A stretch of 64,000 nt of DNA. Origin: Bryobacteraceae bacterium (GTDB taxonomy: Bacteria > Acidobacteriota > Terriglobia > Bryobacterales > Bryobacteraceae). Every line of letters starts with the position of its first letter. Position 1 is the first letter of the stretch. The stretch spans positions 2,218-66,217 of the forward strand of contig JBJMGJ010000380.1 in assembly GCA_045807965.1 (NCBI GenBank), given 5' to 3'. A program made the translations under genes and the position numbers. This document shows positions 2,647 to 62,320 of this stretch, in pieces. The notes under the pieces are model-generated. The model saw only the letters and a program-made list of their open reading frames with translations, ran no database searches and had not been told where the DNA came from.

Positions 2647-3054
2647 TCACGGTCCGAACGTATCTTCCATCAAAGTATGTATTTGACGTGTCAATCGCAC
2701 TCCTGCATCCATTAAAGTGACCTGCGGTCGCCCAGTTCGGTTGTTTGGATATGGCTTCAGAATCCGTTGCGTGTGCTTGTTTCGGACCCTGCCTAGATTG
2801 CTTATTTCATACGCACGAGCTTCTCGTATGGTCTGCCATTCTTCCTCTTCGACCAATGCTTCTGGACCGAAAGCGATCTCGATAAGCTTTTCTACTGGAA
2901 CTGACCAACGCTCACCATCTACCATCAGCAAGACTCTTGGTCTGTAGTACATGTGGTTGTACTTAAGAATCCGAGCAGTTTTTCGGTTTCGCACTCGCCA
3001 TTCATTGCTCACTTCGTAATTTGGTGCGGGTTCAATAACACGCCATTCTTCCAT
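2647..3054 (-). CDS. tandem NUMOD4-motif protein without nuclease motif, 135 aa
   Basis: Two copies of EEW..I..AP/ARxYE(V/I)SN.GRVRN (residues 1-25 and about 70-95). No HNH or GIY motif seen. Confidence 0.5.
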   Translation of the reverse strand: MEEWRVIEPAPNYEVSNEWRVRNRKTARILKYNHMYYRPRVLLMVDGERWSVPVEKLIEIAFGPEALVEEEEWQTIREARAYEISNLGRVRNKHTQRILKPYPNNRTGRPQVTLMDAGVRLTRQIHTLMEDTFGP

Positions 3055-3063: not shown

Positions 3064-4296
3064 CTATAGTTTGAATTCACGTTCATTAAAGCTTCGCTTG
3101 GTCCGTAACGCCTTCCACACGGCATGATCGATCGGTGAGTCAGACCTGAGTACGTAATAGTGCAGATCCTCGTACGGACTGTTTAATCGATCGATCCGGC
3201 CGTGTGCCTGATGCCATAGCTTGTAGGAATATGTCAAAGAATAGAAGCACATACTGTCTGTCTCTACGCAGTTCCAGCCCTCTGCACCGGATTGGTACTG
3301 CACCAGATATACCCACTCAGAGCTCTTCGGAATCTCCTCGTGCTTGTGTCCGTTCCATTCGGCTACTCGGATCTGATCACTCAGGGCTCTTAAGATCTCC
3401 AACTCGTAATCGAAATTGTAGAAGACGATGAGCTTTGGATGCTTCCGAATCAATGAGCGAACAGCATTCAAACGGCTCACATCCGAGTTCGCAAGGCGCC
3501 TCATGACACCAAACAGCTCGCCCGCATCCTTCATCGGTCGATTCGTGTACGGGTTCCATCGTCGCTTCACCGCCAATCTCATCAGGTCCTCGTCGTAATC
3601 GACGTGCAGCAGGTGTGTATGCCTGGTGGTGTGTCTCGTACATGGCATGTCCACCAACAGCTCGTTACGGAGCCGTACAAGGCGATTAACGCCTACGTAT
3701 CGATCCACCTTCGGGTATCGGGTGATGTAGGGGGCATAGACGACATGCTGCCGCTTGAAGTCGGTGATGTTCCGGTAATATCCGTTGGCGATGAAGACCG
3801 GCGCGTAGTCGAGCCAAGTATCTCCTGGGGTAGCACTAAGAAGTATCCATCGGTTGTGTTTAGCAATATGTAGGAACGCCTTGACCCATTTGCCGATCCC
3901 CACCACTCGCTGTTCGTCAAAGATAAAGAAGGCATTCTCTACCTCGGTGTACTTTCCGATGTTGTTCCAGGAGTCGACATGCAGAACTCCAGCCAGGGTC
4001 TCGCCTTTCTTCGTCCCCACCCCGAATTTAGCTGCTTCGGCTTGCCAATCCAGAGAATCCCGCTTCTTGGCTGGGGTGATAACATATAGGTCTCGAGGCG
4101 CCTCCCGGGTAAAGTAATAGGCCATCGCCGTACGCGACTTGCCTGTACCCACACCTCCGCAGAGGATGGAACCGTTACGAAGCTTATCGACAGCTTTTTC
4201 TTGGTGTGGATATAGATCAAAGTTACCTACCCCGCCTTCGGCAATACGTTCCTGCCATTCGACCTGGATCTTGTCCATTGACATAACAGGCACCAA
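3064..4296 (-). CDS. SF2 (DEAD/SNF2-like) helicase, 410 aa
   Basis: LYPHQEKAV, Walker [11 protein letters not shown], motif II FIFDEQ. GTG start behind AAGGAGG. Confidence 0.7.
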
Positions 4297-14265: not shown

Positions 14266-14648
14266 CTTCCACTCACCCGGCCACTAGGTTGGGATACATG
14301 GAAGATGTACTCCTTGGGATTCTTACCGTCGGTCTCTGACAGCAGATAATACGTTCTTCCGCGATTGAGTGAAAACGCCTCGCTACGCCGTTTGTTCTGC
14401 CACAGCGACACGTCTGACGTTGCCGAATATACCGATTGATCGATCCACTCGTCCGGATCGTCGGTAAGTGGACTCAGATTGTGGCCCTGCAGCAGTTCGT
14501 TCAGCATCGGGATGGCAATCGAAGCGGAGCCACCCGAGTGACCCATGTCGGCGAAGGCCTGCACCACCTTCAACAGTCCCTCGATCAGCCAGGGATCGGA
14601 TTCGACGCGCATCAACTCTCGTCGGGCATGGTCAACCAGATTGCTCAT
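14262..14648 (-). CDS. hypothetical protein, 128 aa
   Basis: Track ORF with ATGA overlaps at both ends. Confidence 0.6.
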   Translation of the reverse strand: MSNLVDHARRELMRVESDPWLIEGLLKVVQAFADMGHSGGSASIAIPMLNELLQGHNLSPLTDDPDEWIDQSVYSATSDVSLWQNKRRSEAFSLNRGRTYYLLSETDGKNPKEYIFHVSQPSGRVSGR

Positions 14649-15172
14649 CGTTCCTCCACATGCATAACCTCGGTACGCTCCATCATCGGTCCGTCGACAG
14701 TCGCTGGCATGGCCCCGCCGTACTTGAGCTCCAGTGGGTTCTCGATAATGGTGACGTAAAGACTCTGTAGATATGCCTTGCGGCCACTCTTGCCACCCAT
14801 CGACCAGTCGTTCGGTCGGATGATCAGATCCACCTGGGCGATATCGACCAGATCCAGGATCTCGACATTACTTTCATCCAGATCGACGGTTCGGCGTTCA
14901 CCATCCCGATAGGTGATCATTTTGATCATCGGTGGATACTTACCGAAGTAGACCCGTACCGAAATATATGGCTGGCCGGGCTCGTTCTCGTCCTGACTCT
15001 TCCGCAGTTTGACGTTCCAGCCGTCTCGAGCCAGTACTTCGGCAACGTCCTGAGGTAGAACGACGGCGAAGTTACGCTCGCCTTCCGCGTTGTACATTCC
15101 TTCTCGTCCGGCGAAGTTCCGGAATATGATCTCCACGTCTTCGAGCAAAACCGTGTTATCTTGCCTAGGCAT
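14645..15172 (-). CDS. hypothetical protein, 175 aa (possible ssDNA-binding/OB-fold protein, weak)
   Basis: Track ORF. The only hint is the N-terminal IIFRNFAGREGMYNAEGERNFAVVL pattern and its position among replication genes. Confidence 0.55.
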   Translation of the reverse strand: MPRQDNTVLLEDVEIIFRNFAGREGMYNAEGERNFAVVLPQDVAEVLARDGWNVKLRKSQDENEPGQPYISVRVYFGKYPPMIKMITYRDGERRTVDLDESNVEILDLVDIAQVDLIIRPNDWSMGGKSGRKAYLQSLYVTIIENPLELKYGGAMPATVDGPMMERTEVMHVEER

Positions 15173-16821: not shown

Positions 16822-19800
16822 CTATCCGTTGAGGAACTCTTCGAACGGTCCATAGTAGTCGATCGTGTTCCGAGCGATTTCCACGAGATTCTCGAAATAT
16901 CGCATGTCGATCTCGGCGTCCGATCCCATCGCTTCCACGACAGCGGCCTCCGCCCAGCGATAATCTTTCGTACCGGCGACGGCATAGAACTTGTCCTCGG
17001 CAACCCGCCATAACCGACCAGCAACCGCAGATGTCCCTGCTACCGGTACGAATATGCCGATCTTGCCGACGAATTGCATCTTCTCCTGGTCTCCGGGCTG
17101 AGGCTTGTCGATTCCGGTGAAGTCGAGATAGATAATGCCTTTACCTACCTGTTTGACCTCGCAGTAGTCGTCGAACCGAATATTGTCATCACTGAACAGC
17201 GTCTTGAATACGTAGGGATGCTGGAACTGCGCACCGACCGCGGTGTAGTGCGCGTCCTTACCCTTTCCTTCCCGGGCAATATAAACCGCGTCGTTGACCA
17301 AACAGAAAGCTTTGTAAGTCGCCTCGTGCTCGAACTCGTATCCGTACCTGGCGCCGAAGTCCATCACGAACTGAATGATCTCCGGTGTTGCCTCCGGAAT
17401 CTTGATCGAGTCGGTCTTGATGTGCGCGACTATGTAACCCTTCTGCTGTACCGCATTCTTCAGATCGATCATGAACAACGCGCCACGCTTGGCGACGATG
17501 TTGTCCTTGTTCTTCGGAATACGGAATGGATTGTCGAATTTGGCCGCAGTAAGACCATAGACCGTATTGATCACGATCTTCAGAGCATAGGCGAGATCTT
17601 TCGCCTGACTCTCGTTCTTCAGATAAGGAGCGAGTTTGCCGCCAAGCATTCGTCGCGCCTCTTCAAAATTTCCTCGCTTGATGGCGACGCGAGCATCGAG
17701 TAGAGCGACGAAGTTTGGCGTGTACTCGCCGAAGGCGTTGAGTTCCTTGATGCTAGTCGGATGCATTGACGCAACGTCCAGTACAGCAACGTCGAAATAC
17801 ATTCCTTCGTCAGCGTAGACATAACCACTTTCACCGACCTCTTCGCCACGATATGTGCTCTTGCCCATCTCGAACTCATACCCAGGGAACATCTGCGACA
17901 GATCGGTGTAGACGAACGAGAGTTTGGCATCCCGATCGTTGCCGAATATGATTCTCGCAGTGTGCTTCGCGGTGGAATCGTTCACCGTGAGTCCGGATAA
18001 CGCAGCCAGGATCTGTCTGGCTACGAAATCCTGCTCGCGGTCAACGAAGGTCAATTCGGTACCGATAACGTCGTTGACACAGTACTCGACGACCTTGTCC
18101 CAGAGCTCCTCGGGAACCGGCTTGTCCCAGGGAATATCCATCTCGACCTTACGAATCCCGAGCTGGATCATGAACCGCTTCAGACTCTGCTTGACCGAGC
18201 TGAAGTCATAAATATCCGCGTACGACAAATTGTATGCTTCACCGAACATGGCGCCGCTGTTACCAGCAATTATCTTTTGGCTCAGCGCGTACAACGCAGC
18301 GTTGTCATAACCCATGTACGCTGCATAGAGAATATGATTGTCGTACCTACGGTTGTTGAAGCCGACAAGCTTCATGTGCAGCAGTTTTTCGATCTCCTGT
18401 GCCGGAGGATTGACCATCCGAACGACCGCGGTGTTCACTCCTTCGTATTTCCAGCAGACGACGAAGAGATTGGGATATACTTCGACATCGAAGAAGACCA
18501 ACCGTCGGTCATCGTTGTCGTCCAGCTTCTCCTGCACACCCGGAACCGGATCGTCGAGATGATCTGGAATATCCGAACTCTTGAATTTCATCTGCTGAAC
18601 CTGCTTGATGCAGTACATGGCGTGATTCGTCGAGCCGGTAGCGAACGCAAATATCTGCGACCGCAGATCGGTGACATCGTAGGACATACCGCTCTCGAAC
18701 GCTTCATCCAAGATCTTCTTGATGAAGTCGACCGACGGTTTGGTACCTGGGAGAATTTCTCGACGAAGGTTGCGTGCGATCAGGCTGCGTAGGCCTTTCT
18801 CGCTCTTGATGGTATCAGCTCCCAGCATCTTCTTCTCCTTGATAGGTAACGTGTTGATCATCGTTGCGATGGGCACGTTGTTACACTTGGACAACCGACG
18901 GCGTAAGGACGAACCCCCCGTAAAGGCCTTGACCTCAACACCCTCAGAATACTCTGGCTTGAGAATAGTGACATCGCCGTCATAATTGTAGTGGAGATGA
19001 ATTCCACTGCCGGACTTGCTGATCTCTGCGTAGGTAGGAGGCCATGCAGAGGCCGCCTCGAGGTTTCGCTCGAGAGATTTGTTTCCATCGTCGTCCTTGA
19101 GGTCGAAGTCAATCACAATATGCTGATCAGGGACCTTGACGAAGTGGACTTTACTCGTATCGATGTCAGACAAAATCGTCGTGACAGTTGACCAGGACTT
19201 CTTCGGTGTGCCATTGGGTGTGGCGTACTGAGCAGGATATCCGGCAAAGTCATCATCGAAGAGCGAGTGGGTCTCCTCCATCACAAGCGAGAACGTCTGT
19301 ACATTCTTACTGGGTGCCTTGTACTTGTTGGCATTGAAACCACAATAATAACTACGCACGATCTCCCCGTCCACCTCAACTCGTTCTTTGAATCCGTCGA
19401 AGTAGTTCCGTAACTCCTCGCGGAATTTGTACTGAGGTAACGGTCGATCGATGCCACTTTCGGCACACCATTCTTTGTACATGGTGTACGCCTGTTTCAG
19501 ACTGGTGCCGTCTTGCGCCTTGAATATGTCATACGTGGCTTCGATGAAGTTGAAGAACACGTCGGTTTGGAGCATCATCTCGGTCGGACGATATGAGCTG
19601 TAGTAATTCTTACCCAGCTTGCGATAGACGCCCAGACAGTGATGTGCTATCGCGCCTAATTCGAAGTCGATTCTTGCCAACAACGCATCATAATGCTTCC
19701 GCGGAATCGTAACTCCGGTAGGATGCACATCGATCAACCGTCGGATGATACCCGACTTCGCATCAGATATCTTGACCGGTTGATTGGTACCCATGAACAG

Positions 19801-20595
19801 AAACGCATTCACCCGGGAAGTGTAACCGGGTTTGTACTTCTCGTTCATCGGCATGTCTTCGTGCGCAACGATCGAGTTGATCCGGGTATTGTCCTCGATC
19901 TTGCTCAAGTCTCCGTCATGTTGCACGGCAACCAACGGATTGTTCTTGAACGCTTCCGTAGCGAAGGTGCCATTGCTAGACCCTAACGCTTTGGCATCGA
20001 AGGTGGTTGTGTATCCTTCGAACAGCTTGAGGATGATGTTTAGAATCGTCCCCTTGCCCGAGCCAGGAAGGCCGTAGAAAACCAGGAACTTTTGAATCTT
20101 CTTGGCATCACCGGAGATTATTGCTCCGATAGCCCATTCGATTTTCTCTTGTTCCTCTACGGAGTACAGCGTTCCCACGAGTTCGTCCCAAGCGCTGTGA
20201 TCGCCTGGTTCGAGCGCATACGGCAGTCTGCGACTCACGTAGTCGGTCTTGCGGATATCCTGGTTGGCGAAGGTGAGGTTTTCATCCAGCTGGTGATAGC
20301 TGTCGGGCAGGTTGGCTACATGTTGCTGAAAACTAGCCCACATCCGATTGCTACCATTACGGAGATACTTGACGGTTACGCCGCCGTTCTTCTCCGCATA
20401 TAGGCGCAGGTCCTCGTCGACGAGTCGTTGTACGTCGTACTCGTCCGTGGACCACAGACCTCTCGATTCATCCCAGATAGCATAAACGGAATGGCCACGG
20501 ATCATGATGTCCTCGAAGCGTCCGACCAGAAAATCGGGAAACGCTTCTAGTTTGCCACCCTTTGTCTCTCTGGTTGAAATTACGTAGAAGTCCAC
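16822..20595 (-). CDS. fusion replicase: D5/P4-type SF3 helicase + AEP primase + family B DNA polymerase, 1257 aa
   Basis: Walker A GLPGSGKGT (residues 175-183). AEP motifs VIDFDLKDDDG and SGSGIHLHY (about 494-536). Exo motifs FFDVEV, NNRRYD, YCVNDV. PolB motif A DVASMHPTS, motif B KIVINTVYG, motif C HIKTDSI. Confidence 0.85.
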   Translation of the reverse strand: MDFYVISTRETKGGKLEAFPDFLVGRFEDIMIRGHSVYAIWDESRGLWSTDEYDVQRLVDEDLRLYAEKNGGVTVKYLRNGSNRMWASFQQHVANLPDSYHQLDENLTFANQDIRKTDYVSRRLPYALEPGDHSAWDELVGTLYSVEEQEKIEWAIGAIISGDAKKIQKFLVFYGLPGSGKGTILNIILKLFEGYTTTFDAKALGSSNGTFATEAFKNNPLVAVQHDGDLSKIEDNTRINSIVAHEDMPMNEKYKPGYTSRVNAFLFMGTNQPVKISDAKSGIIRRLIDVHPTGVTIPRKHYDALLARIDFELGAIAHHCLGVYRKLGKNYYSSYRPTEMMLQTDVFFNFIEATYDIFKAQDGTSLKQAYTMYKEWCAESGIDRPLPQYKFREELRNYFDGFKERVEVDGEIVRSYYCGFNANKYKAPSKNVQTFSLVMEETHSLFDDDFAGYPAQYATPNGTPKKSWSTVTTILSDIDTSKVHFVKVPDQHIVIDFDLKDDDGNKSLERNLEAASAWPPTYAEISKSGSGIHLHYNYDGDVTILKPEYSEGVEVKAFTGGSSLRRRLSKCNNVPIATMINTLPIKEKKMLGADTIKSEKGLRSLIARNLRREILPGTKPSVDFIKKILDEAFESGMSYDVTDLRSQIFAFATGSTNHAMYCIKQVQQMKFKSSDIPDHLDDPVPGVQEKLDDNDDRRLVFFDVEVYPNLFVVCWKYEGVNTAVVRMVNPPAQEIEKLLHMKLVGFNNRRYDNHILYAAYMGYDNAALYALSQKIIAGNSGAMFGEAYNLSYADIYDFSSVKQSLKRFMIQLGIRKVEMDIPWDKPVPEELWDKVVEYCVNDVIGTELTFVDREQDFVARQILAALSGLTVNDSTAKHTARIIFGNDRDAKLSFVYTDLSQMFPGYEFEMGKSTYRGEEVGESGYVYADEGMYFDVAVLDVASMHPTSIKELNAFGEYTPNFVALLDARVAIKRGNFEEARRMLGGKLAPYLKNESQAKDLAYALKIVINTVYGLTAAKFDNPFRIPKNKDNIVAKRGALFMIDLKNAVQQKGYIVAHIKTDSIKIPEATPEIIQFVMDFGARYGYEFEHEATYKAFCLVNDAVYIAREGKGKDAHYTAVGAQFQHPYVFKTLFSDDNIRFDDYCEVKQVGKGIIYLDFTGIDKPQPGDQEKMQFVGKIGIFVPVAGTSAVAGRLWRVAEDKFYAVAGTKDYRWAEAAVVEAMGSDAEIDMRYFENLVEIARNTIDYYGPFEEFLNG

Positions 20596-20607
20596 GCACC
20601 CTCCCCC

Positions 20608-21129
20608 CTAGCCCTCCAGAAGATATGCACTCATTTGGTACCAGATCTCGACATTTCTCTGGTCCTTGCGTGCATATCTTAGCGGAAACAGCCCTCCACG
20701 GCCGTTTCGATCGTAGGTTCGCCAAATGACGGTGTTGATTCGTTCATCTACCTCATCATGGTCGTATTGTGATCGGTCGGTGCAGTTCTGCAACCCGAGA
20801 TTTTTGATGAGATGCCAGAACCAGGTCTCGGCGTGGCCCTCAGCTTCGAAGGCCAAGCGCCGAGACAAGGCAACGAGCATCTCGAGAAAAGAACAGCCGC
20901 GGGCCAGCCACGTAGGATCCGGAAATATCCTACTTTCCGTAGCCCATTCGTGACGTAGCCCGCGGCCGTCCTCTACTCGGTTGTCGTCGTTTGGAACCAG
21001 CCAGATGAATTCGATTTCGTACATCTGATGGAACAGGTTCCAGTACGTGCGGGACCGGTTGCGTTCCTTGACGTCACCGACCTGGCTGTACAACCAGGAC
21101 AGGTACAGATCGTCAAGGGATTCGGTCAC
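20608..21129 (-). CDS. hypothetical protein, 173 aa
   Basis: Track ORF with GTGA overlap upstream. Confidence 0.6.
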   Translation of the reverse strand: MTESLDDLYLSWLYSQVGDVKERNRSRTYWNLFHQMYEIEFIWLVPNDDNRVEDGRGLRHEWATESRIFPDPTWLARGCSFLEMLVALSRRLAFEAEGHAETWFWHLIKNLGLQNCTDRSQYDHDEVDERINTVIWRTYDRNGRGGLFPLRYARKDQRNVEIWYQMSAYLLEG

Positions 21130-22533: not shown

Positions 22534-23448
22534 TCAGATCAGGTGGTAAACCGTACCGTCCACGTTGAAATCGAGCCAGATGGATCCTTCTTCACCGTTC
22601 ATGAAGTCGTGTACTTCGCGAGAGTTCTCATCCAGCCCGAAAGAGACGTAACCGTCCCCGCCGGTCTTCCTGGTGTCCTTCACCCAACCGACGACACAGC
22701 CTTCCTTCGTCCGCTCCATGCCGAGCGAATCGTAGACGTCGTTCAGCAACAGATATCCGTATGCCCGCAGCCGATCATTTGCCCAAGTCTGCTGGACCTG
22801 GATGAACGTCCGGTTGTCGAGCGGGTGATTGGACCAGTGCCTGTTCAGCTGATCGAACGGACGAGCGTAACCAGACATGCCCTTCGCAGCGATGCGCTTG
22901 ACCGTCTTTACCTCGTGGCCGTGCTCGTCCTCCTCGATGATCTCCTTGAGCTTATATCCGTAGCGGAACTCACGGTCCTTGTCCTCGCCGAGTTCATCAC
23001 GGACCCGCTCCCGGTACTCCTTGAAGGCCCGATCGACCACCGCGTACGCCGCAGCCAGACTGGCATTCCGCTTGGTCAGCACCACGTGTGAACCGGTCAG
23101 CAGAGCGATCGACACGAAACCCAGTCCGACCGCAGGTGCATAGAGCTTGGTGAGATCCCGAGCGAGGTGGATCTTTACCAGCCGCTGGTCGCTCTGCCAC
23201 TTCTCGACGGTGTACTGGGCCGGGCGCTCGTCATGCACTGCATCCAGTCCAACGCGGGTCTTCTCGGCCTCCTGCAGGATTTCCTCGACCTGCAGTGTGG
23301 CCTTGCACGCCAGAACCGTCGCGGTCACTGCCGTGGCGATACCAGCTCCGAACAGCATGGCCGGAGAATGCTTCCGGGCCAGCAGAGCTTGCCGAGCCAC
23401 CGCTACGGTGACTGTATTTGGAATGAACTTCACGATATGTCCTTTCAT
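22534..23448 (-). CDS. two-TM protein, paralog family member 1, 304 aa
   Basis: TM helices followed by RLRAYGYLLLNDVYDSLGMERTKEGCVVGW. Homologous to 27006..27845 and 28366..28692. Confidence 0.65.
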   Translation of the reverse strand: MKGHIVKFIPNTVTVAVARQALLARKHSPAMLFGAGIATAVTATVLACKATLQVEEILQEAEKTRVGLDAVHDERPAQYTVEKWQSDQRLVKIHLARDLTKLYAPAVGLGFVSIALLTGSHVVLTKRNASLAAAYAVVDRAFKEYRERVRDELGEDKDREFRYGYKLKEIIEEDEHGHEVKTVKRIAAKGMSGYARPFDQLNRHWSNHPLDNRTFIQVQQTWANDRLRAYGYLLLNDVYDSLGMERTKEGCVVGWVKDTRKTGGDGYVSFGLDENSREVHDFMNGEEGSIWLDFNVDGTVYHLI

Positions 23449-23589: not shown

Positions 23590-24249
23590 TCACCGCTCCA
23601 ACGGTTCTGGTGGGGGAAGATTGAGCAGATATCCTTGCCGAATATGCTCGATACGAGATCCGCGCAAGTCGGTCCAACCATAACGGAAGTCGGTGAAATT
23701 GGCGGATTCACCTATCAACTCGTACAGATCCGAAACGGCAACCTGCTCGTACCGTTCGAGAATGGCAAATAACCCATCGAGGACCATCTCGGCTTCGGGT
23801 CGTGATTCGAGAATGATCTCTTCGAAGTTGTGAGCACCACGTGATCGTCGACTCACCGATTCCCGGGGGTCATCCCGTAACGATCGAACCGGTGATTGCG
23901 AAAAACCACGATAGTCGACCCGTCCAGGCAGACCAACAACCCGACCGTTCATCCTTCGATGCGATGCTCGAGATTCGCCGAGCACCAGTCGTTCGACACC
24001 ACCGTTGACCACATCGATGATCAGATCGCGGAAGTTGGGAAGGACGATGTCTTCCAGCAGATACTCTCGAACGCTTATCGCATCACCTCCGATGAATGCT
24101 TCTTTCAGTCGTCTGCTGAACGGCCGCTTACGTCGAACGACTTCACCATGGACGACTCGCTCGATGTTCTTGGTTTCGGGCTGTGGTTCTGGTCCGTCCC
24201 GAGATGGTCCCCTTCTTGATCGATCACTGTTACCAGGAAATTCATCCAT
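23590..24249 (-). CDS. hypothetical protein, 219 aa
   Basis: ATG 24249 (MDEFPGN) behind CATGAGGATTATC. Confidence 0.6.
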   Translation of the reverse strand: MDEFPGNSDRSRRGPSRDGPEPQPETKNIERVVHGEVVRRKRPFSRRLKEAFIGGDAISVREYLLEDIVLPNFRDLIIDVVNGGVERLVLGESRASHRRMNGRVVGLPGRVDYRGFSQSPVRSLRDDPRESVSRRSRGAHNFEEIILESRPEAEMVLDGLFAILERYEQVAVSDLYELIGESANFTDFRYGWTDLRGSRIEHIRQGYLLNLPPPEPLER

Positions 24250-24273
24250 GATAATCCTCATGTAGGAAAAATG

Positions 24274-27005: not shown

Positions 27006-27845
27006 TCAGTGAGTTCCGCCGAATCCCTTGTGGTAGTCCTTGATGATTCCCGGGCGATTGTAATACTCCATGACGAAGCAGGGCTTGGTTCCGCCGTCGG
27101 CCACCGTTGTCGTGAAGTTCAGCTCCATCGGACTTTCGATCGTCCAGCCTACTTCACTGGAGAACTGAGTACGTGCCAGTCCGATCTCGTCGTAGAAATC
27201 GGACAGACTCACGTACATGTCGTCGATCATCCGATGGTTCAACCGAGCTTCCGCCATCTTGACCAGATGCATCTTGCTCCGGAAGTACCGGCCGGTCCAG
27301 GCTTCCAGGAACAGCACCTCATCCTCACCCGCCAGGACCTGAATATCGTCCGATGGCGGATTGTTGTGGAATCGATCCTGATTCAGCTCGTCCCGAATCT
27401 CTTGTTCCTTCTTGATCCCGAGCTTCTCGGTCACCTTGTCGCGATACTCGTCGAACTGCTTCTCGCTGACCTTGTACGCGGCAGCCAGTCCAGCGAGCCG
27501 AGTAGCACTGATGCTGTTCGCGGTCAGGATGCAGCCTACGGTTCCGACCAGCATGAGCGCTGGCGGAATATACTCCTTCCAGACCAACTTGATCTTCTCT
27601 TTGGTCTCGAGCGGATGCCCCTTCTCCATGAAGTCCTGGTTGGTCTGCTCCGCGGCGATGATCGTCGCGGCCTTGAAGGTGGCCTTACCGGTCAGATAGG
27701 CGGTCATCGCAGCGCCGGTCACGGCGAACGCCGAGATGATCGTCGGTGAATTGTCGATGGCGTACTTTTCCGCCACCTTGAGTAAGCTACGAAGCGTCAC
27801 GATGTAAATCCTCTTCCTGATAATCGTAAAGCGGGGTTTCGACAT
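27006..27845 (-). CDS. two-TM protein, paralog family member 2, up to 279 aa
   Basis: LAGLAAAYKVSEKQFDEYRDKV and YVSLSDFYDEIGLARTQFSSEVGW align with 22534..23448. The real start may be GTG 27800. Confidence 0.6.
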   Translation of the reverse strand: MSKPRFTIIRKRIYIVTLRSLLKVAEKYAIDNSPTIISAFAVTGAAMTAYLTGKATFKAATIIAAEQTNQDFMEKGHPLETKEKIKLVWKEYIPPALMLVGTVGCILTANSISATRLAGLAAAYKVSEKQFDEYRDKVTEKLGIKKEQEIRDELNQDRFHNNPPSDDIQVLAGEDEVLFLEAWTGRYFRSKMHLVKMAEARLNHRMIDDMYVSLSDFYDEIGLARTQFSSEVGWTIESPMELNFTTTVADGGTKPCFVMEYYNRPGIIKDYHKGFGGTH

Positions 27846-35713: not shown

Positions 35714-36170
35714 CGTCCTTGTCCACCACCACCACAACGGTTTTATCAGGGTTGACAAACCCACTGACAGCCCACCACAAGAAAGCCAACAACCCCCAGT
35801 TCAGAACGGCTGTCAGATTAATGGTTGGCGACTTTTCGAAGATCACTCCCGCGGCATAGGTAGCACTCCAGCCCGCGGAAAGTGCGGTAAGGACGGTATA
35901 CCCCCAGGTATCTGCTACTGGTGGCCATCTAGCGGAAAGAATGGCCAACAAACCGGCAAATATGAACAAACCTCCCCAGAACTCGACCGGGAACCAGCGA
36001 AGCGCAAGGACTAATGCAAGCTTACGACTCGGCGTTGGCTTAGCCAAGATATAAGTCACCCCAACGAGTACGTACGCAATCCCACCAACCAACAGCACAA
36101 GACTATGGCGCTTGAAAGGACGTACACCCCAATAGTTTGTGCGCCAATTCCGGCCAGATGGCTGGCTCAC
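35688..36170 (-). CDS. four-TM membrane protein (holin-like), 160 aa
   Basis: GTG 36170 behind GGAGAC, with GTGA overlap with the FN3 gene stop. Four hydrophobic spans. Confidence 0.5.
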   Translation of the reverse strand: MSQPSGRNWRTNYWGVRPFKRHSLVLLVGGIAYVLVGVTYILAKPTPSRKLALVLALRWFPVEFWGGLFIFAGLLAILSARWPPVADTWGYTVLTALSAGWSATYAAGVIFEKSPTINLTAVLNWGLLAFLWWAVSGFVNPDKTVVVVVDKDDDNRNSRR

Positions 36171-37150
36171 GCTGTCTCCTTCCAGACCCCGGCTATCTTT
36201 GCCCAACCTTGAGCCACTTTCCATACCCCATTTTGACGTACGTACGGTACTGCCTGTTTCCAGGTATTACCGACCAGTATCCAGACCCCACCGGCCGTAC
36301 GTACGCTTTTGGAAGCGGAATACGGACCCCAGCCATAGGAGTTCTTTGCTCGTGCCCAGAAGTAGTAGGTCGCTCCAGGAGTCAGTCCACTGATCGTTGT
36401 CGACCCGTCAGAGGTGACCGTTGTCGTCGGTCCGGACGAACTGGTGCCATAGCCGATCTGATGATCCGTGATGCTGGATCCGTTGTTATCATTGTCGGAG
36501 AAAGTCACATACACCGATATCGGCATGATGGATGAGATCACCGGTGTGGTTGGCGCGTCCGGTGTACCCTCCATCGTGACCGAAGCTCGGGTGCTCCATT
36601 CGCTCCAACCGATTGCGTTGTGCGCTCTAGCCCAGAAGTAATACGTCGTTTTCGGCGTGAATCCGGTCAGTGGCGTATTACCATCCGACGTCCGGTACTG
36701 CGGATCGCCTCCGGTGTACATCGACGTCGTGGTGTTGTAACCGATCTGGTACTCGTCGATTACCGAACCGTGGATAGCACCCGGAGAGAACGTCACCGTC
36801 AAGGTGGTATCGGTGACGTTACTGAGCTTGAGTCCGAACGGTGGATTCGGCACATCATCGGTCGTTACATCCGATCTCGGGCTCCAGTCACCCCAGCCGA
36901 TCGCATTTCGACCGCGTGCCCAGAAGTAATAGGTGGTGCCAGGGGTAAGACCGACGATAGGCGTGTTTCCATCAGAGGAAACGTAATGCGGAGTGGCACC
37001 GGAATACAGCGAAGTACTGGTGCTGTATCCGATCTGCCACTCGAGAACTGTTGAACCACCGGTGCCATTACCGTTGAACGCCGCGGTAAGTGTTGTATCT
37101 TTGATGTTGAAGAATACAACAGCATCTGGTGCCGGAGGAGCCGTAGCCAT
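36167..37150 (-). CDS. minor tail/fibre protein with three FN3-like repeats, 327 aa
   Basis: The block L(T/S)PGTTYYFWAR(G/A)xNAIGW(G/S)(D/E)WS recurs three times at roughly 100-aa spacing (more divergent in the third copy). C-terminal GVWK repeats. Confidence 0.65.
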   Translation of the reverse strand: MATAPPAPDAVVFFNIKDTTLTAAFNGNGTGGSTVLEWQIGYSTSTSLYSGATPHYVSSDGNTPIVGLTPGTTYYFWARGRNAIGWGDWSPRSDVTTDDVPNPPFGLKLSNVTDTTLTVTFSPGAIHGSVIDEYQIGYNTTTSMYTGGDPQYRTSDGNTPLTGFTPKTTYYFWARAHNAIGWSEWSTRASVTMEGTPDAPTTPVISSIMPISVYVTFSDNDNNGSSITDHQIGYGTSSSGPTTTVTSDGSTTISGLTPGATYYFWARAKNSYGWGPYSASKSVRTAGGVWILVGNTWKQAVPYVRQNGVWKVAQGWAKIAGVWKETA

Positions 37151-37152
37151 AC

Positions 37153-37392
37153 TTACACCACGATCTTGAAGTAAACATCCCCGTCGCTACCACCGGTGGG
37201 AGATGCCGTGCCGGACGAAACGCCCGCCGCCGAGCGATAGGCGGACTTACCGACCGGAATGAGTGCTTTGACCGCCGCGACGAAATCCCGGGTACGGTTT
37301 AGCTCCCGGGCACCCCAGCGAACTCGACCTTCCTCGCCGGTATCCGGAACGGTGGGATATCCACCAGCGACTGCCTGATCGCCAATAGCCAT
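37153..37392 (-). CDS. hypothetical tail-module protein, 79 aa
   Basis: SD GAAGGAGG. Confidence 0.55.
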   Translation of the reverse strand: MAIGDQAVAGGYPTVPDTGEEGRVRWGARELNRTRDFVAAVKALIPVGKSAYRSAAGVSSGTASPTGGSDGDVYFKIVV

Positions 37393-37407
37393 GTCATGCC
37401 TCCTTCG

Positions 37408-38592
37408 TTACGGCAGGGTACCCCAGACCGTCGTGGTGTCGGTGTCGTAGTCAGCCCAGACCTTGTCGGATTCCCAGGACAGCCACGATCCGGTGTTGAT
37501 GTACTGGTAGAGGGTCAACGTCGGGTAAGAACGCTCGCCTTCGGTATCGGACACGAATATCTGCTCGGTGACCCGCATGTTGTTGGCCACACCGTCGATG
37601 TTCTGCAGTTCGACCATGTCACCTAGACGATAATCCGTTCCGTACTTGTACGAGCTGTTCTGGCTGATCTCACCGTCGAAGCCGAAATATACGATGGCGT
37701 TCGTCAGCGCTTCCCGGCCCTTCTGGGTCAAATATGCGTTGATCTCATCGGTTGTCGGCGTACCGTCCAGAGTGTCCGCCTGAACCAACATCACATTACG
37801 ATCGAATCCCGAGATGGTCGACGAGACGTCCTGGGGATAGACCGTCAAATATCCCTGCTCAGAGAAGACGTAGGCAACATTCTTCGCCTGATCGATAGCA
37901 GTCAGCTCATTGGTGTTCTGCAGATTGTCGAGATTGGGCGAAAATACCACCGGAGGTAAAACCGTCTGTCCGGTTGTCCGGTCGCTGCCGGTGTACAGAT
38001 CGAAATATAGCTGCGAAGTATCGAAGTTACGCAGCAGCCGGAAGCCGATACCGTATGCGTCGCCAAGACCCTTCAACGCGTTGTACAGCGTGTCCGGATC
38101 CTGGGTCCAGGTGATCGGATCGATCGGCGCAGGCAAGGTACTTGCAGGCATGATGGATCCGGGCTGCAGAAATGGAATGGCGTCATTGGGATTAAGATCT
38201 CCCCGCCGAGCCATGCCATCGAACAGCCAGGTCATGATCTGCGTAGGCGTACCATTGAGTACCCAGTTGGGTTCGGTGGTGAGATTCTGCCAGTGCCGCT
38301 TCACCACTCGACTGTCCAACAAGGTACCCTCGAGTGACCGGCCTTTCAGGGTCAGCATGGATTTGCCGTCGGTATCGGTGGCATTCTCGACCGATTCCAC
38401 CGTCATTACATAGTAGGATTCGTTGATCGCCAGTTGAGTACCGGCTGAGAATAAGCTTCGAGCTGCTGGTGTAGATCGAACCACCAACTCGAAATCACCC
38501 CAAGCGGTGAACCGCTCGGTCCAGATCAATGATTCGAACACATCCACGACTTGCTCACGACGGAGGAGACTGTCCAGAGTGTACACCTCCAT
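37408..38592 (-). CDS. minor tail protein, siphovirus Gp37-like / Tal N-domain-like, 394 aa
   Basis: Lies directly after Dit and the tape measure gene. The N-terminal pattern MEVYTLD..R....V.D.FESLIWTERF is typical of Gp37-like proteins as I recall them. Confidence 0.55.
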   Translation of the reverse strand: MEVYTLDSLLRREQVVDVFESLIWTERFTAWGDFELVVRSTPAARSLFSAGTQLAINESYYVMTVESVENATDTDGKSMLTLKGRSLEGTLLDSRVVKRHWQNLTTEPNWVLNGTPTQIMTWLFDGMARRGDLNPNDAIPFLQPGSIMPASTLPAPIDPITWTQDPDTLYNALKGLGDAYGIGFRLLRNFDTSQLYFDLYTGSDRTTGQTVLPPVVFSPNLDNLQNTNELTAIDQAKNVAYVFSEQGYLTVYPQDVSSTISGFDRNVMLVQADTLDGTPTTDEINAYLTQKGREALTNAIVYFGFDGEISQNSSYKYGTDYRLGDMVELQNIDGVANNMRVTEQIFVSDTEGERSYPTLTLYQYINTGSWLSWESDKVWADYDTDTTTVWGTLP

Positions 38593-39431
38593 TACAAGCC
38601 TCCATACCGAGTGTCATAGGTGAGATCGTAGGGAATAGGTGTTCCCTCTAGGTAAAGACGCAGATAGTTGTCGCCCGGCTGAAACTCCAACCAGGCAGAC
38701 TGTGGCGAAACTCCGTAGAGTGCCGAAGTGTCTACATTGGCCCGAGTGAGAGTGACGCCCTTGGCGCCGGTGAGCGTGCTGATCTCCAGCGTGTCACCGG
38801 CAACCAAGGGAATCGAGAAGTCGAGCTGACGGAGTGTTCCATCCGGAGGTCGTAGATAGAACGTGAACGCTGTCACGCTACGGTCCGGACGAATCGTGAA
38901 CACTCCGCCAGTTTCGACGGTTCCCGCATAGCTGATAATCGTATCGACAGCGTCAGTGAACGACGAGGAAGTAACCGACATAACGCCCGTCAACGACACC
39001 GGATTCGGATCGACGAAGTCCGGATCGAAGCACATCAACGAAATATCAGCTTCTGGCTCCTGGGTGAAGAGTGGAGTCTCGAAAGTCTCGACCCTGCCCA
39101 GGATATCGACGTACAGATCGTCGTCCATGACGAACCGAAGGCTTACTTCGGATTTCGGCATGAAGAAGCCGTACAGCCGCTTCCGCAGATCTGCTACCGA
39201 CGTGTCCACATAGTCCGGTTCGAGCCCTATTTTGAGCTTGATGTTGCGGGACTCTCGCCGGGCCGAGTGATACTGTTCGCCGTCCTGTCCAGCGAAGCTG
39301 GATGAGACCAACGTCGCATTGACCGGATCCAACCCTTCGATCTCTTCGATGATCAACCCAGAGGTCGTGTCATCCAGTGGAAGGGTCAGCAGCGAGCCCT
39401 GACTAGTACGGACTTCAACTCGGACGAGCAT
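38592..39431 (-). CDS. distal tail protein (Dit)-like, 279 aa
   Basis: First gene after the tape measure gene, overlapping it by 17 nt. Size and position are typical of Dit. Confidence 0.55.
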   Translation of the reverse strand: MLVRVEVRTSQGSLLTLPLDDTTSGLIIEEIEGLDPVNATLVSSSFAGQDGEQYHSARRESRNIKLKIGLEPDYVDTSVADLRKRLYGFFMPKSEVSLRFVMDDDLYVDILGRVETFETPLFTQEPEADISLMCFDPDFVDPNPVSLTGVMSVTSSSFTDAVDTIISYAGTVETGGVFTIRPDRSVTAFTFYLRPPDGTLRQLDFSIPLVAGDTLEISTLTGAKGVTLTRANVDTSALYGVSPQSAWLEFQPGDNYLRLYLEGTPIPYDLTYDTRYGGL

Positions 39432-42400
39432 TACTGGTCAGAGCTCCCTTCGCACGAGAAATCTGGTTGTTGGTCTGACGATAGATCTCCGCACGAGACA
39501 GAGCCTTGGGCGACATGTTGTTCTGGATGAACGTGAGCGGCGCCGGTGGTTCTGCCGTTGCTGCTGCGGTGCTTGCCCGCTGATTGGCTGCATAAGCCGC
39601 AGAGGCATCTCGTGCTTTGGTCGTATCGACGGTGAGCGGTTTGCTTGCCAGCATCGACCCGATTTGCGAAGCGCCCTTCTGAACGTTGGACAGATCCAGC
39701 ACCGGAGAGATGACCGGATTCATATCCATGTCTCCATTGACAGCAGAGCCCAGTCCAGCGATAGTCTTCTTCATCGAATCGATGGCAGTATTGCCGATAA
39801 CCTCCGCTGACCGTCCTACTGCAGTGGCGTTTGCTTCCAACCCTTGCGCCATACCCTGTGCAGTAAATGCGCCCAGCTCAGCGAACACCTCGGAAGGAGA
39901 CTTGATTCTCAACGCCTTCTTCATGCGAGCAACCATGTAGTCGGCGATCTGATCCATCTGCTTCTGAATGTTCTTCTGCTGAGACTGTAGACCCTTGACC
40001 AGACCGGCAGCCGAGTCGACCGCAGCCTGGTAGAGCGACGACGAAGCGGACTTGCCGATGCCCGCCGCTGCTTTGTCCAACGACGAACCCAGGGTGTTGA
40101 GATTCTGCACCGCAGACTTACCACCGGCAAGAAGTTGCTGCATGAACGGCATCGCATCGAGACCTGTTCCCAACAACTGCTGGTACATCTCGTTGTTGAG
40201 TCCACGCTTGCGAAGTTCCTGAATTGCGATCGAGAACTTCTGGGTATCGACGATTTGCTGTTGAAGATTCTTGACGTAATCGTTCAGGCTGGTGTCTTTA
40301 GCAACAGCTTGCTGGGCACCATACTGATCCTGCAGGCTCTTGTTGTAGTCGTCACGGGTTTTCGTGGCGTCGGATAGAGCCTGCTTTGCGTCCTTGATCT
40401 TCTGGGTAAGGACGTCATTCTGATCCGCCAGCTTCTTCTGCCTGGCATACTCGTCGTCCAGTTGGGTCTTCAAATATTGATGCGTTCGAATGCTGGTCTT
40501 GTACTCGGTTGTAGCAGCAGCCAGCACCTTCTTCTCGTCTGCGATCTGCTTGACGGTCTTGCCTCGAGCAGTTAGCAGCCGATCATATGCTGCCTTTGCA
40601 GAATCGATCGCGTTCTGCCTGGCCTGTGCCGACCGCTTACGCTCAGATGCCTTCTTACCGGTGACATCTCTAGCTTCTGCTTGATCGATTCGTTTCTGCG
40701 CAGCAGCAAGATCCTTGGCGTTCTGTACGTTTCTTGCCCGCAGGTCGGCGATACTCTTGTTAGCTGAAGCCATTCGCTCTTTAGACTTCTGCGTCAAGTT
40801 GTCGATATCAGTAAACATGCTCTGCACGGCATCGTGGATTTGTTGTTTGTTGCCCACGATACCAATAGCGAAACCTCGAGTTAGATCATGGCCAATCTTG
40901 ATGAACTCTTTCGAAGGTGAATGCGAATCAAGGATGTTTCTCGCCCAATCGAGAGCACCCCCGGCCATGTTCTTTACCGCATCCCAAACATGGCTGGCCA
41001 GGTTCTTGACACCATCGACCATACCATCGATGATTGCCTTGGCCAGATTCCAACCGGCATCGCTCATCCGCTTACCATTCTTACGAATAGCGTCGGCAAT
41101 GCCATTGACGAAGGATATGATCAGGTTGACACCGGCCTGAATGATTCGCCCAATGTTCCGGGAGATACCATTCAGGAAATTGACGATGATGTCAGCAGCC
41201 TTGTCAACGACCTTGCCGATGTTCTTACCGATGCCATCGAGGAATCCGATGATCACCTTCATACCGGCATCGACGATTTGAGGAATCGCCGTAACGATAA
41301 CCTTCAATATCGCCTTGAGCACGACCAGCATGGTCTGTGCCGCCTTGGGCACGAACTTGATGATGGCGTTGGCGAACGCAATCAGAACGGCCGTGATGGC
41401 CATCGTAATCGCTCCACCGGATATGGCGATGACCTTGGCAAAGGCGACAATGCCCAGCCCAATCTGCTGTGCCACATACGGAATAAGGCCAACCAACCCC
41501 GATACGATCGCTACGATCGCAGCCGTACCCGCAGCACCCGCTGCCGCCAACAGGGTCAAACCAGTGGCGAACGCCAGCACACCCACACCGGCCAAGAGCA
41601 TCGCAGCACCGAGCAGAGCAATGGATGCCGCCAAGCCGAGCAACACCGGCACAACCGGCGCAAGGATAAGCCCAGCCAGACCAATGACAGTAAAGACGCC
41701 CGCCAACATACCCAGACTGGCCGCGATCTGACCAATCGACATGTTGGCGAACGCCATCAGTACCGGCATCAGCATGTTCAGTGCAACCGCCATGACCACC
41801 ATCGCGGCAGCACCGGCCAAGCCGCCTTCCATGGCCCGCATGGCAACGACCAATATCGCCAACGATATGCCTAGTCCGACCAGACCCTTGGCGAGTTGTT
41901 CCCAACTAAGCGCAGCCATAATGCTGAGTGCATTGGCGAGAACCTCAATCGCCACAGCAACCACTAGCAGGCCGAGCATCTTGAGGAAGTTGATCTTCGA
42001 CAGGAATTTCATCGACAAAGCGATCAAACCAAGACCGCCAGCGATGCCGACCAGACCCTTGGCAATATCATTCCAACTGAGAGTTGCCATCTGTTGGAAC
42101 GCCTGCACCAGGACCATCAAAGCGCCGATTACCTTCGCCACCGACAACGCCGACATGAGCGACGTCGCTGGCATGATCTTGAGTGCTCCGGCAATACCAA
42201 GCAGACCGACCATCAATCCGGTAAAGCCACGCTCCATGTCAGACCAGGACATGGTCGCGAACTTGATGACTGCGTTAGCCAGAACATTGATAGCCGTAGC
42301 CATGATAAGGAGACTGAGTGCATCGGCAACGCCGGTTGCACCGGACTTCTGCAGTCTGCTGAATATAGCCAAAGCCGCCAGTGTTCCGGCCAGCCCGGCG

Positions 42401-44889: not shown

Positions 44890-45266
44890 GCTGAGGTCAC
44901 CGCCTTCCACACAGTCTGTGCGATGTCGTCAAAGATCGGGCGAATAGCTGGATTGATAAAATCACGACCTTGGACGTAACCTCCGGTGCCGGTTCCATGG
45001 CCGTATTGAAGCATGATCACGACCGGAAAGCCATTCTCGATGTCAGAGTTGGTCCAGACAATCGCAAATCCGCCCCTATTTTGACGAACTTCATAACCCC
45101 ACGACCGAGCGGCCAAGCTGGTACGAACCGGGGTTGCGGCTGCCAAAGCTTGAGCACCTCTTGCCGCCTGGGCATCCACTAGTCGTGGAATGTCTAGCTT
45201 TTGGGCGGTTTGAAGAAAGCGCTCGGTGTTTTTGAAGGAGCCACGCTGGGTGATTCGGATCGCCAT
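44886..45266 (-). CDS. HK97 gp10-like tail/neck protein, 126 aa
   Basis: IENGFPVVIMLQYGHGTGTGGYVQGRDFINPA resembles the gp10-family core (E.G....P..PF..PA) as I recall it. Confidence 0.5.
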   Translation of the reverse strand: MAIRITQRGSFKNTERFLQTAQKLDIPRLVDAQAARGAQALAAATPVRTSLAARSWGYEVRQNRGGFAIVWTNSDIENGFPVVIMLQYGHGTGTGGYVQGRDFINPAIRPIFDDIAQTVWKAVTSA

Positions 45267-51640: not shown

Positions 51641-51659
51641 TTTGACTGTCTCCTTCCTT

Positions 51660-52961
51660 CTATTCGATTGCTGGTACTGTCGTCGTTCTGGTCGAAGGCA
51701 CTCGAATCGGTTCGTTGATCGAAGGGTCAACAGACGTGTCAATTGGAGTGCCAACAGGGGGTGCCTGCTGGCCTAGCTCCGATTGAGGCATGTTGCTGTT
51801 CCGAAGTTGATTCGCCTTCGGGTCGTTGGACGGCTGCATTCCGATGACCTGACGGATCTCATTGGAAGACAGGATCTCATTCCGAGTGAACTTATCCGCG
51901 ATTTCAGCAAGGTCACCGACCGGTACCAGCTTGAACGGCTCTCGGAAGTACTCAATGGACTGCTTCTGCGTTCGGGCAGTCTTGGTAAGGAAACTCCGGC
52001 GCATTGCCTCCACGATGGCAGTCAGAAGGGGCTCGATGGTACGGTTCTGATAGTTGAGCATGGTCTTCTCATCCGCCGTACCATTCATGATCTCCGGCGT
52101 AAGGCCAAGCTGACCGTAGAGCATCTCAGTCAGATACTTGATCTGAGCAAGAAGATTGTTCTCCACCGGCCGGTTCAATTGGGTGATCTTCTCAGTTCCA
52201 TCCACATAAGCAATACCATACTGGCTGCCCTTGAGCTGGAACTCGATGTCAGCGCGACGCTGTTCGGCTTGCTGTCGCCGTGCTTCCGATTTGATAACAT
52301 ATGGAAGCTGAATAACCATGTCCAGTTTGCCTGAACTCGACTGTTCATCCACGGAATCCAGAAGCCCTAGCTTCCGAATAAGCCGTTGCATGGTCGAGTT
52401 CGGCTGGTTCATGATGTCGTAGAACGGATTCTCGACAATAGCTACTGCTCTCTTGCTGAGCGTAATCTCTTCACGACGTCCGCGTCGTTCGTTGTACAGC
52501 GAAATCGTGACATGCTGTGGATGCCACTGAATAATTTCGCCAACCCGCATGGTCAAGATGTCAAAGTTGCCAGAATTCTGCGGATTTAGCGTGGTATCCA
52601 CTGGAACGATCGCGATAGTACCCTGCTGAATCAGCGACATGACCATGTCTTGCCGAAAAGCTCGTGCGCCTTGATCCAGATTAGCTTCAACGGTAAGACA
52701 ATTGTTCAACCCACTAGTGAGCTCTTCAACAAACCAGCCATTGTCATCCAGCCGAACGTGCTTCATTGCGACCGAAGCAGCATCCGTCGCAAGTCTTGTG
52801 TAAACCGAGGTGACGATCGATCGTTCATTGGTAGTCAGCAAACGAGTTCGATCTGGTCGAAGTGTGTAGCCCGGTCCCATGTCAGTACTAGGAATCCGAC
52901 CTACATCGTCCATGTTAGTGAACGCATTCCAGGCGTGAACTAATCGGTCCTTAAAGGACAT
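51660..52961 (-). CDS. portal protein, 433 aa
   Basis: Size, and position directly upstream of the protease-capsid gene. Confidence 0.6.
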   Translation of the reverse strand: MSFKDRLVHAWNAFTNMDDVGRIPSTDMGPGYTLRPDRTRLLTTNERSIVTSVYTRLATDAASVAMKHVRLDDNGWFVEELTSGLNNCLTVEANLDQGARAFRQDMVMSLIQQGTIAIVPVDTTLNPQNSGNFDILTMRVGEIIQWHPQHVTISLYNERRGRREEITLSKRAVAIVENPFYDIMNQPNSTMQRLIRKLGLLDSVDEQSSSGKLDMVIQLPYVIKSEARRQQAEQRRADIEFQLKGSQYGIAYVDGTEKITQLNRPVENNLLAQIKYLTEMLYGQLGLTPEIMNGTADEKTMLNYQNRTIEPLLTAIVEAMRRSFLTKTARTQKQSIEYFREPFKLVPVGDLAEIADKFTRNEILSSNEIRQVIGMQPSNDPKANQLRNSNMPQSELGQQAPPVGTPIDTSVDPSINEPIRVPSTRTTTVPAIE

Positions 52962-58012: not shown

Positions 58013-58026
58013 GGGTCACCTCCTTC

Positions 58027-58302
58027 CTATCGACGTCGGTCTCCTTGTCGGCGCTCACCACGACGACGGTCGCCGCCAAAGATTCCGTTTCGTTTCAACC
58101 AGTCGTCAACCTCGTCCGGGCTCATCTCACGAATACGGCGCTCTTGTCGGCGACGATCATCACCAATTCGAGGATCTCCCAACGGATGCTCGAGGGTCTT
58201 TTCACCAGGATGACGATGCCGAATGATCCCTCCTATCACAATCGCCACGATTAGCACCACCACTAGCAACACCACAAATTGTCCTATCCATAACCAGAGC
58301 AT
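58027..58302 (-). CDS. membrane protein with Arg-rich tail, 91 aa
   Basis: TM segment LWLWIGQFVVLLVVVLIVAIVIGGII. C-terminal GDRRRGERRQGDRRR. Confidence 0.55.
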   Translation of the reverse strand: MLWLWIGQFVVLLVVVLIVAIVIGGIIRHRHPGEKTLEHPLGDPRIGDDRRRQERRIREMSPDEVDDWLKRNGIFGGDRRRGERRQGDRRR

Positions 58303-62296: not shown

Positions 62297-62320
62297 TCAG
62301 AACACCTCCTTGGAAATGAG

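Follow-up and report, generated by a model that had tools for sequence, protein, structure and literature searches.

A probable GP55-type four-in-one replicase encoded by a siphovirus-like phage genome

The minus strand of the window, i.e. of the whole 64,000-nucleotide stretch analysed here (contig JBJMGJ010000380.1), carries at positions 16822-20595 one uninterrupted open reading frame (ORF) of 1257 codons, hereafter called the replicase gene, which runs from a GTG start to a stop at 16822-16824 and is the sole ORF in this region in the ORF listing. As read from the sequence, the GTG start is credible, since the upstream gene closes with a TAG (20608-20610), behind which come a Shine-Dalgarno sequence, GGGGGAGGG (20599-20607, minus strand), and then, 3-4 nucleotides further on, the GTG itself. 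The resulting N-terminus, MDFY, is common to GP55, the protein of Lactococcus phage 1706 presented below, and to metagenomic homologs. The initial annotation had proposed a single 1257-residue polypeptide combining a helicase, a primase and a polymerase, and the nine motifs that it quoted are all present, each once and in the order given: GLPGSGKGT starts at residue 175, VIDFDLKDDDG at 494, SGSGIHLHY at 528, FFDVEV at 701, NNRRYD at 747, YCVNDV at 838, DVASMHPTS at 940, KIVINTVYG at 1006 and HIKTDSI at 1058. With a probability of about 0.92, this protein would be a functional four-in-one replicase of a siphovirus-type phage and an ortholog of GP55.

Homology to known proteins extends over the entire length of the replicase. 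End-to-end collinear homologs are found in 252 phage records, the best 120 metagenomic proteins or clusters measure 1239-1280 amino acids with a query coverage of 97-100%, and one profile, phrog_4210 ('DNA polymerase'), spans residues 1-1256 in one piece with 1975 bits in the PHROGs profile search. The frameshift or assembly join against which a check had been advised is therefore excluded by the collinearity with these phage records and metagenomic proteins.

The reference for this architecture is GP55 (orf55 of phage 1706, 1317 amino acids), which was purified and characterised as a 'four-in-one replicase' by Zhang et al. (Nucleic Acids Research 2025; PMC12205980). According to these authors, the GP55 helicase depends on UTP/dTTP and its unwinding is abolished by K189A, while its RNA primase, which prefers GTP initiation at 5'-CCAAC-3', is abolished by D509A and needs a new four-helix domain, the alpha-helical domain (aHD), whose Y655 and F667 are indispensable for primer synthesis (PMC12205980). 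Its family B polymerase (PolB) is inactivated by D949A and its 3'-5' exonuclease by D712A/E714A, its strand displacement depends on the helicase domain, and the protein is dimeric and replicates single-stranded M13 DNA de novo (PMC12205980). BLASTP of the replicase against GP55 gives a single high-scoring segment pair (residues 1-1245 versus 1-1293, 38% identity over 1310 columns, 830 bits, E=0). In a global alignment, K189 of GP55 falls on K181 of the replicase, D507/D509 on D496/D498, Y655 on Y639, F667 on F651, D712/E714 on D703/E705 and D949 on D940, so that all the GP55 residues tested by mutation (K189, D509, Y655, F667, D712, E714 and D949) are conserved, together with D507 of the DxD motif. 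The two proteins also share the order SF3 helicase, PriS-like archaeo-eukaryotic primase (AEP), aHD and exonuclease/PolB, as well as a GKGT-type Walker A and a KTDS motif C; the replicase differs in being 60 amino acids shorter, mainly in its C-terminal tail. By domain, identity to GP55 amounts to 33% for the helicase, 52.5% for the PriS-like domain, 39% for aHD, 45% for the PolB core and 31.8% for the C-terminal tail.

Kazlauskas, Krupovic and Venclovas (Nucleic Acids Research 2016; PMC4889955) had already listed the fusion of an SF3 helicase, an AEP and a PolB for phages of Lactococcus and Rhodococcus, and they found the primase ahead of the helicase in 94% of fusions. This survey agrees with the view of the initial annotation that the primase usually lies N-terminal of the helicase and that the order helicase-AEP-exonuclease/PolB is unusual. 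The novelty that was implied for the fusion does not hold, as the same fusion was reported in 2016 (PMC4889955) and shown to be self-sufficient in 2025 (PMC12205980). The replicase is thus a real, correctly read, further member of a known and experimentally characterised family.

To examine the domains, the protein was modelled with AlphaFold2 (AF2) in two halves, residues 1-690 and 673-1257, and alignments of 30 homologs were used. The first part, residues 1-429 (19309-20595, minus strand), was delimited by Pfam, Foldseek and the GP55 alignment, and comprises an N-terminal domain, a D5-type SF3 helicase and a Pox_D5-like C-terminal region. Pfam places DUF5906 at residues 173-286 (E 2e-11, 44.7 bits against a cut-off of 27.6) and gives a weak Pox_D5 match at residues 364-405, and PHROG primase-helicase families cover residues 111-420. 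The residues expected of the helicase for Walker A, Walker B, sensor 1 and the arginine finger, namely the Walker A GLPGSGKGT at 175-183 (with K181), the acidic D227/D229, N271 and R285/R286, align with their GP55 counterparts. In Foldseek, the model of the N-terminal half (predicted local distance difference test, pLDDT, of 77) matches monkeypox virus (MPXV) E5, vaccinia D5, the African swine fever virus (ASFV) PrimPol, the SaPI5 primase-helicase and the C-terminal region of NrS-1, with E values from 3e-11 to 1e-8; on account of these matches, the N-terminal half is, as modelled, assigned as a D5-type SF3 helicase. The D5/P4-type NTPase that had been placed first is borne out by the DUF5906 match, the D5/E5-type Foldseek matches and the aligned motif residues. 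As a separate observation, the Walker A of the replicase (window 20047-20073, minus strand) reads GxxGxGKGT, with Gly directly after the Lys rather than Ser/Thr, and GP55 is alike in this respect; GKST is the consensus in the alignment of 30 metagenomic relatives. GP55, with its GKGT Walker A, was reported to use UTP/dTTP instead of ATP as helicase fuel.

The PriS-like AEP catalytic domain occupies residues 430-587 (18835-19308, minus strand), as delimited by PHROG matches, motifs and the GP55 alignment. Motif I corresponds to IDFD at 495 (D496/D498) and motif II to SGSGIH at 528 (H533), while motif III lies probably around E554; in the family alignment, D496, D498, H533 and E554 are invariant in 31 members. 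Matches to PHROG primase families span residues 462-595, with phrog_3022 and phrog_695 at E 2e-6 and 9e-6. The motif II His lies 35 residues beyond the second Asp of motif I, in the replicase as in NrS-1 PrimPol (reference record AB746912). When the AEP sub-alignment is compared with NrS-1 PrimPol by hhalign, motif II falls in register, as does the EV(K/Y) strand behind it (P 7e-4), a comparison that is usable for motif register and not as stand-alone proof. The AEP core that had been recognised downstream of the helicase is thereby supported by the primase matches, by the NrS-1-like motif spacing and by the PriS-like domain of GP55, shown by experiment to be active, to which it is 52.5% identical. 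In Foldseek, helicase matches dominated the output for the N-terminal half, and the AEP fold was not separated out in it. Between the AEP and the polymerase, residues 588-672 (18580-18834, minus strand) form aHD, a four-helix accessory module recognised from the AF2 model, with helices at 599-610, 622-635, 642-653 and 659-667, and from the GP55 mapping. The three-domain reading of the initial annotation stands as far as helicase, AEP and exonuclease/PolB are concerned, but it overlooked aHD.

The last part begins with a linker and the 3'-5' exonuclease subdomain of PolB, residues 673-890 (17926-18579, minus strand), which was delimited by phrog_1252, Foldseek and the GP55 mapping. The phrog_1252 DNA polymerase profile matches residues 687-889 with E 1e-40, and the exonuclease motifs are ExoI with D703/E705, ExoII with NNRRYD at 747 and ExoIII with YCVNDV at 838. 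The polymerase subdomain follows, together with a C-terminal tail that diverges from GP55, at residues 891-1257 (16825-17925, minus strand; profile, Foldseek and GP55 mapping), and carries motif A with D940, motif B with K1006 and motif C with KTDS at 1060-1063. The model of the C-terminal half reaches a pLDDT of 86.7 and a predicted template modelling score (pTM) of 0.80. Its 50 best Foldseek matches in PDB, among which are the archaeal 9°N, KOD and Pfu polymerases, E. coli Pol II and Pol alpha, are all family B polymerases (best E 5.7e-19, probability 1.00), with a query-normalised TM-score of about 0.5. In addition, the family profile retrieves E. coli Pol II from the PDB sequences (E 4.5e-4), all three polymerase motifs, A to C, being in register. 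The exonuclease and PolB that had been announced as complete and last in the chain are accordingly recovered by the motifs, the Pol II profile match and the Foldseek top 50.

Protein-primed PolBs are marked by two insertions, of which TPR1 separates motif A from B and TPR2 separates B from C. In the replicase, 66 residues separate motifs A and B and 54 separate B and C, compared to 134 and 73 in phi29, which leaves no room for TPR1 or TPR2, and this spacing agrees with the alignment to E. coli Pol II. The hhalign comparison of the PolB sub-alignment with phi29 is marginal (P 0.01, 44 columns, motif C only). Concerning the affiliation of the PolB, which the initial annotation had left to be checked, a protein-primed, phi29-like origin is thus disfavoured by the motif spacing and by hhalign, and the Pol II-like spacing, without room for the TPR insertions, fits RNA-primed rather than protein-primed synthesis. 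These features favour a PolB of the RNA/DNA-primed type, in keeping with the primase fused to it.

Going by its homology to GP55, from which its activities, nucleotide preference and oligomeric state are carried over, the replicase might operate as follows. The N-terminal D5-type SF3 helicase would unwind duplex DNA through nucleotide hydrolysis at the K181 P-loop, and would also confer strand displacement and mediate oligomerisation. The PriS-like AEP (D496/D498/H533), with aHD (Y639, F651), would synthesise short RNA primers de novo on a single-stranded template, which the C-terminal PolB (D940, K1006, D1062) would extend with deoxynucleoside triphosphates while the DnaQ-type exonuclease (D703/E705) would proofread the product; the primer could be handed off in trans between subunits of an oligomer. 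As helicase, primer synthesis, extension and proofreading would all reside in one chain, a single polypeptide would supply the core of the replisome, presumably aided by a separately encoded single-stranded DNA-binding protein (SSB) and by recombination/repair nucleases.

Several results weigh against this assignment. Over the whole length only 38% of the residues are identical to GP55, with still lower values for the helicase (33%) and the C-terminal tail (32%), and the nucleotide preference, the oligomeric state and the recognition site of the primase may therefore differ. The AF2 model of the helicase core is of low confidence, with pLDDT values of 42-74 over residues 200-290. The AEP, whose independent support is modest, is the weakest of the three domains in this respect: Pfam Prim-Pol (PF09250) matches residues 489-538 below threshold (E 0.068, 14.1 bits against a cut-off of 22.8), and hhalign gives a probability of only 27% for the comparison with NrS-1 PrimPol. 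As for the polymerase, the Pfam-A scan gave no DNA_pol_B or DNA_pol_B_exo family even at E values up to 1, and a single-sequence phmmer search of PDB yielded only chance matches (E about 0.5) and no family member. These blanks are explained by the clade being too divergent for such models, and the fold and profile evidence take precedence. Canonical PolB motifs are DxxSLYPS for A, KxxxNSxYG for B and DTDS for C. The replicase departs from the last of these with KTDS, as does the active GP55.

In the light of these points, other explanations have to be weighed. That the long ORF is an artefact, in which genes for a helicase, a primase and a polymerase were joined by the assembly or by a frameshift in sequencing, is hardly conceivable. 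Nothing in favour of it was found, and the same uninterrupted architecture of about 1240-1320 amino acids recurs in the 252 independently sequenced phage genomes, in the best 120 metagenomic clusters and in GP55, which was expressed and purified as such, and the single profile phrog_4210 runs through residues 1-1256. It is also very improbable that the protein would be a phi29-like protein-primed PolB whose AEP-like region is a degenerate, non-catalytic remnant. Such a reading could call upon the alignment of the GP55 PolB motifs with phi29 in the 2025 paper (PMC12205980), upon the size of the PolB part (about 585 amino acids, near the 572-575 of phi29 polymerase), and upon the strand displacement and very long products that GP55 has in common with phi29 (PMC12205980). 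However, TPR1 and TPR2 do not fit the spacing of 66/54 versus 134/73, the phi29 comparison by hhalign is marginal while the Foldseek top 50 and the best PDB profile matches are RNA/DNA-primed PolBs, no catalytic residue of the AEP varies within the family and D509A abolishes priming by GP55, and the strand displacement of GP55 requires its helicase domain.

Somewhat less remote, though still unlikely, is that the replicase belongs to the GP55 family but that the actinophage-type enzyme differs in detail. The clade might form a hexameric or dodecameric ring helicase-polymerase, for instance an ATP-driven hexameric SF3 ring instead of a UTP/dTTP-dependent dimer, its AEP might act mainly as an origin-specific initiator or recognise another sequence, and it might rely on conserved neighbours, namely the DUF6353/phrog_2152 and phrog_4079 proteins, as accessory factors. 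The identity of 33% and 32% to GP55 in the helicase part and the C-terminal tail would be compatible with such a divergence, as would the hexameric or dodecameric state of the helicase's structural neighbours D5, E5 and the ASFV protein, and the conservation near the replicase, from the window through to phage 1706, of the genes at 23590-24261 and 22534-23448 (DUF6353). On the other side, the Walker A variant GKGT is specifically common to the replicase and GP55, every residue tested by mutation in GP55 is kept, and GP55 alone is enough for de novo synthesis in vitro. If such a divergence of the clade were true, it would qualify the published picture in which GP55 and SSB are the phage's only replication proteins. 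The reading as a GP55-type four-in-one replicase is preferred here.

This GP55-type reading can be set beside other fused or related systems. The other published case of helicase, primase and polymerase fused into one chain is Pas55 of the Actinoplanes phage phiAsp2. Its helicase is likewise of the SF3 type but, as described, its primase is DnaG-type and its polymerase belongs to family A, where the replicase has an AEP and a PolB (PMC4889955). Vaccinia D5, MPXV E5, ASFV C962R, SaPI5 and the NrS-1 PrimPol-helicase have the same helicase fold and the same pairing of AEP and SF3 as the replicase, but these D5-type primase-helicases carry the AEP N-terminal to the helicase and are devoid of a fused replicative polymerase. 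Besides, NrS-1 and pRN1 need a helix-bundle domain, in place of which the replicase has the unrelated aHD (PMC12205980). In the literature, no follow-up work on GP55 homologs was found beyond the 2025 paper, and among publications on PolB diversity only the 2016 paper was found to mention phage 1706 (PMC4889955).

Among isolated phages, the replicase has its closest relatives in Gordonia Deejayvirinae, whose proteins are named 'DNA primase/polymerase' (62.7% identity for Roney gp62), and in gp072 of the Rhodococcus phages ReqiPepy6 and ReqiPoco6 (62%), followed by homologs in Arthrobacter, Streptomyces and Curtobacterium phages (51-59%), so that the Gordonia, Rhodococcus, Arthrobacter, Streptomyces and Curtobacterium homologs together show 51-63% identity over 98-100% of the length. 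The human-gut 'Siphovirus contig89' homolog is 48% identical, and that of phage 1706, as mentioned, 38%. At the nucleotide level, similarity to known phages is confined to the replicase gene, at about 72%, and the phage thus represents a new lineage of a known group. In a database of 5.8 billion proteins, of which at least 8000 candidates were scored, the best among the matches listed is 99% identical and comes from a JGI (Joint Genome Institute) metagenome only, the next being 81% identical. The precomputed Pfam domains among the best 120 database matches are DUF5906 only, plus Pox_D5 (PF03288) in a few of them, and the primase and PolB parts are therefore invisible to standard pipelines. The names given to family members in public annotations are often misleading, those at JGI including 'Fe-S-cluster formation regulator IscX/YfhJ', 'energy-coupling factor transporter ATP-binding protein EcfA2' and 'DNA polymerase III delta prime subunit'.

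A further 103 matches in Enterococcus phages were considered as full-length fusions and ruled out, as they cover the PolB part only, with 22% identity, and are stand-alone polymerases. The PolB of the Enterococcus Efquatrovirus 'DNA polymerase B-like' protein (phiSHEF4 gp15, 763 amino acids) is homologous to that of the replicase (hhalign probability 98.5%, E 2.6e-15, 516 columns), and these stand-alone polymerases share with it short fingers and an ExoIII of the YC-NDV type (YCMNDV). They differ by being unfused, phiSHEF4 having a separate PrimPol gene (247 amino acids) about 5.5 kb upstream of the polymerase gene. The Efquatrovirus polymerase and its separate PrimPol look like the unfused counterpart of the same primase-polymerase pairing.

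No replisomes more compact than helicase-primase-polymerases made of one polypeptide are known. As reagents, fusions of this kind hold promise for isothermal DNA amplification without primers, as has already been argued with GP55. To this, the window adds a divergent GP55 ortholog of higher G+C content from a lineage that is abundant in metagenomes and poorly annotated, and, given that no family member turned up in the PDB sequence search, an actinophage ortholog could aid structural work. The finding on its own leaves existing knowledge unchanged.

The window as a whole is a siphovirus-like phage genome, transcribed almost wholly from the minus strand, in which no tRNAs and no Rfam families were found. 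Its structural genes include the large terminase (55013-56764), the portal (51660-52961), a protease/capsid fusion (49589-51754), the tape measure (39415-44910) and minor tail proteins (36167-38592). Its G+C content is about 54%, compared to 33.7% for phage 1706, and the genome resembles those of actinobacterial phages. The flanks of the replicase gene are syntenic with those of gp62 in Roney, with gp58-61 upstream and gp68, gp85 and gp88-91 downstream.

A tblastn comparison of the window ORFs with the Roney and 1706 loci defines a gene set kept in all three: the replicase, an SSB, an SF2 helicase, a VRR-Nuc-like nuclease, a Cas4-like exonuclease, a large terminal protein and two uncharacterised proteins. 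The phage SSB is encoded at 14645-15172 of the minus strand (PF24083, E 1.7e-54; phrog_4787) and corresponds to 1706 gp66 and Roney gp68, and the SF2 DNA helicase, at 3064-4296 (minus strand; phrog_62, E 7e-61), is 53% identical to Roney gp85 and 40% to 1706 gp67. The VRR-Nuc-like nuclease (1360-1767) and the Cas4-like exonuclease (855-1415, recognised by tblastn), both on the minus strand, form a pair (855-1767) for which phrog_3953 is given with E 3.5e-77; it matches Roney gp89/gp90 and 1706 gp68/gp69 in tblastn, and the Roney annotation concurs. The large terminal protein is represented by its N-terminal 298 amino acids at 1-894 of the minus strand, its ORF being cut by the left window edge (Roney gp91, 52%, E 1e-96; 1706 orf75, 39%, E 2e-55). 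The 1706 orf75 is annotated as 'RNA-dependent RNA polymerase', with a near-threshold Pfam match to RdRP (PF05183, E 7e-5) and with helix-turn-helix and sigma-70 region 4 domains. Judged by its sequence, the protein at 1-894 may be an RNA polymerase of a single-subunit, eukaryotic-RdRP-like type that is kept in all GP55-type phages.

The two uncharacterised proteins are encoded upstream of the replicase on the minus strand. The DUF6353/phrog_2152 gene (22534-23448) lies three genes upstream and has counterparts in Roney (gp59) and 1706 (gp51), so that it accompanies the replicase even in phages of very distant hosts; a paralog, the second copy of this family, lies at 27006-27845 of the same strand. 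The phrog_4079 protein (23590-24261), which is without a Pfam match, is 39% identical to Roney gp58 and 30% to 1706 gp43, and is a candidate member of a conserved early/replication module. Two further minus-strand ORFs match HNH endonuclease PHROGs, one at 1754-2275 with a counterpart in Roney gp88, and one at 2647-3054 without a Roney counterpart, which may be an extra homing-type HNH inserted beside the SF2 helicase gene.

Finally, tail-fibre-like genes are found upstream of the terminase (within 56774-63862, minus strand), a placement that is unusual relative to the packaging genes. This region comprises a tail-fibre-like gene at 60254-61600, matching tail fibre families including collagen-like ones, a tail spike-like N-terminus at 62321-63862, upstream of the large terminase, and a 661-residue ORF at 58302-60287 that has no PHROG match, all on the minus strand. 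This arrangement may reflect the position of the genome ends, or a genome larger than that of the Gordonia relatives, which is about 60 kb.

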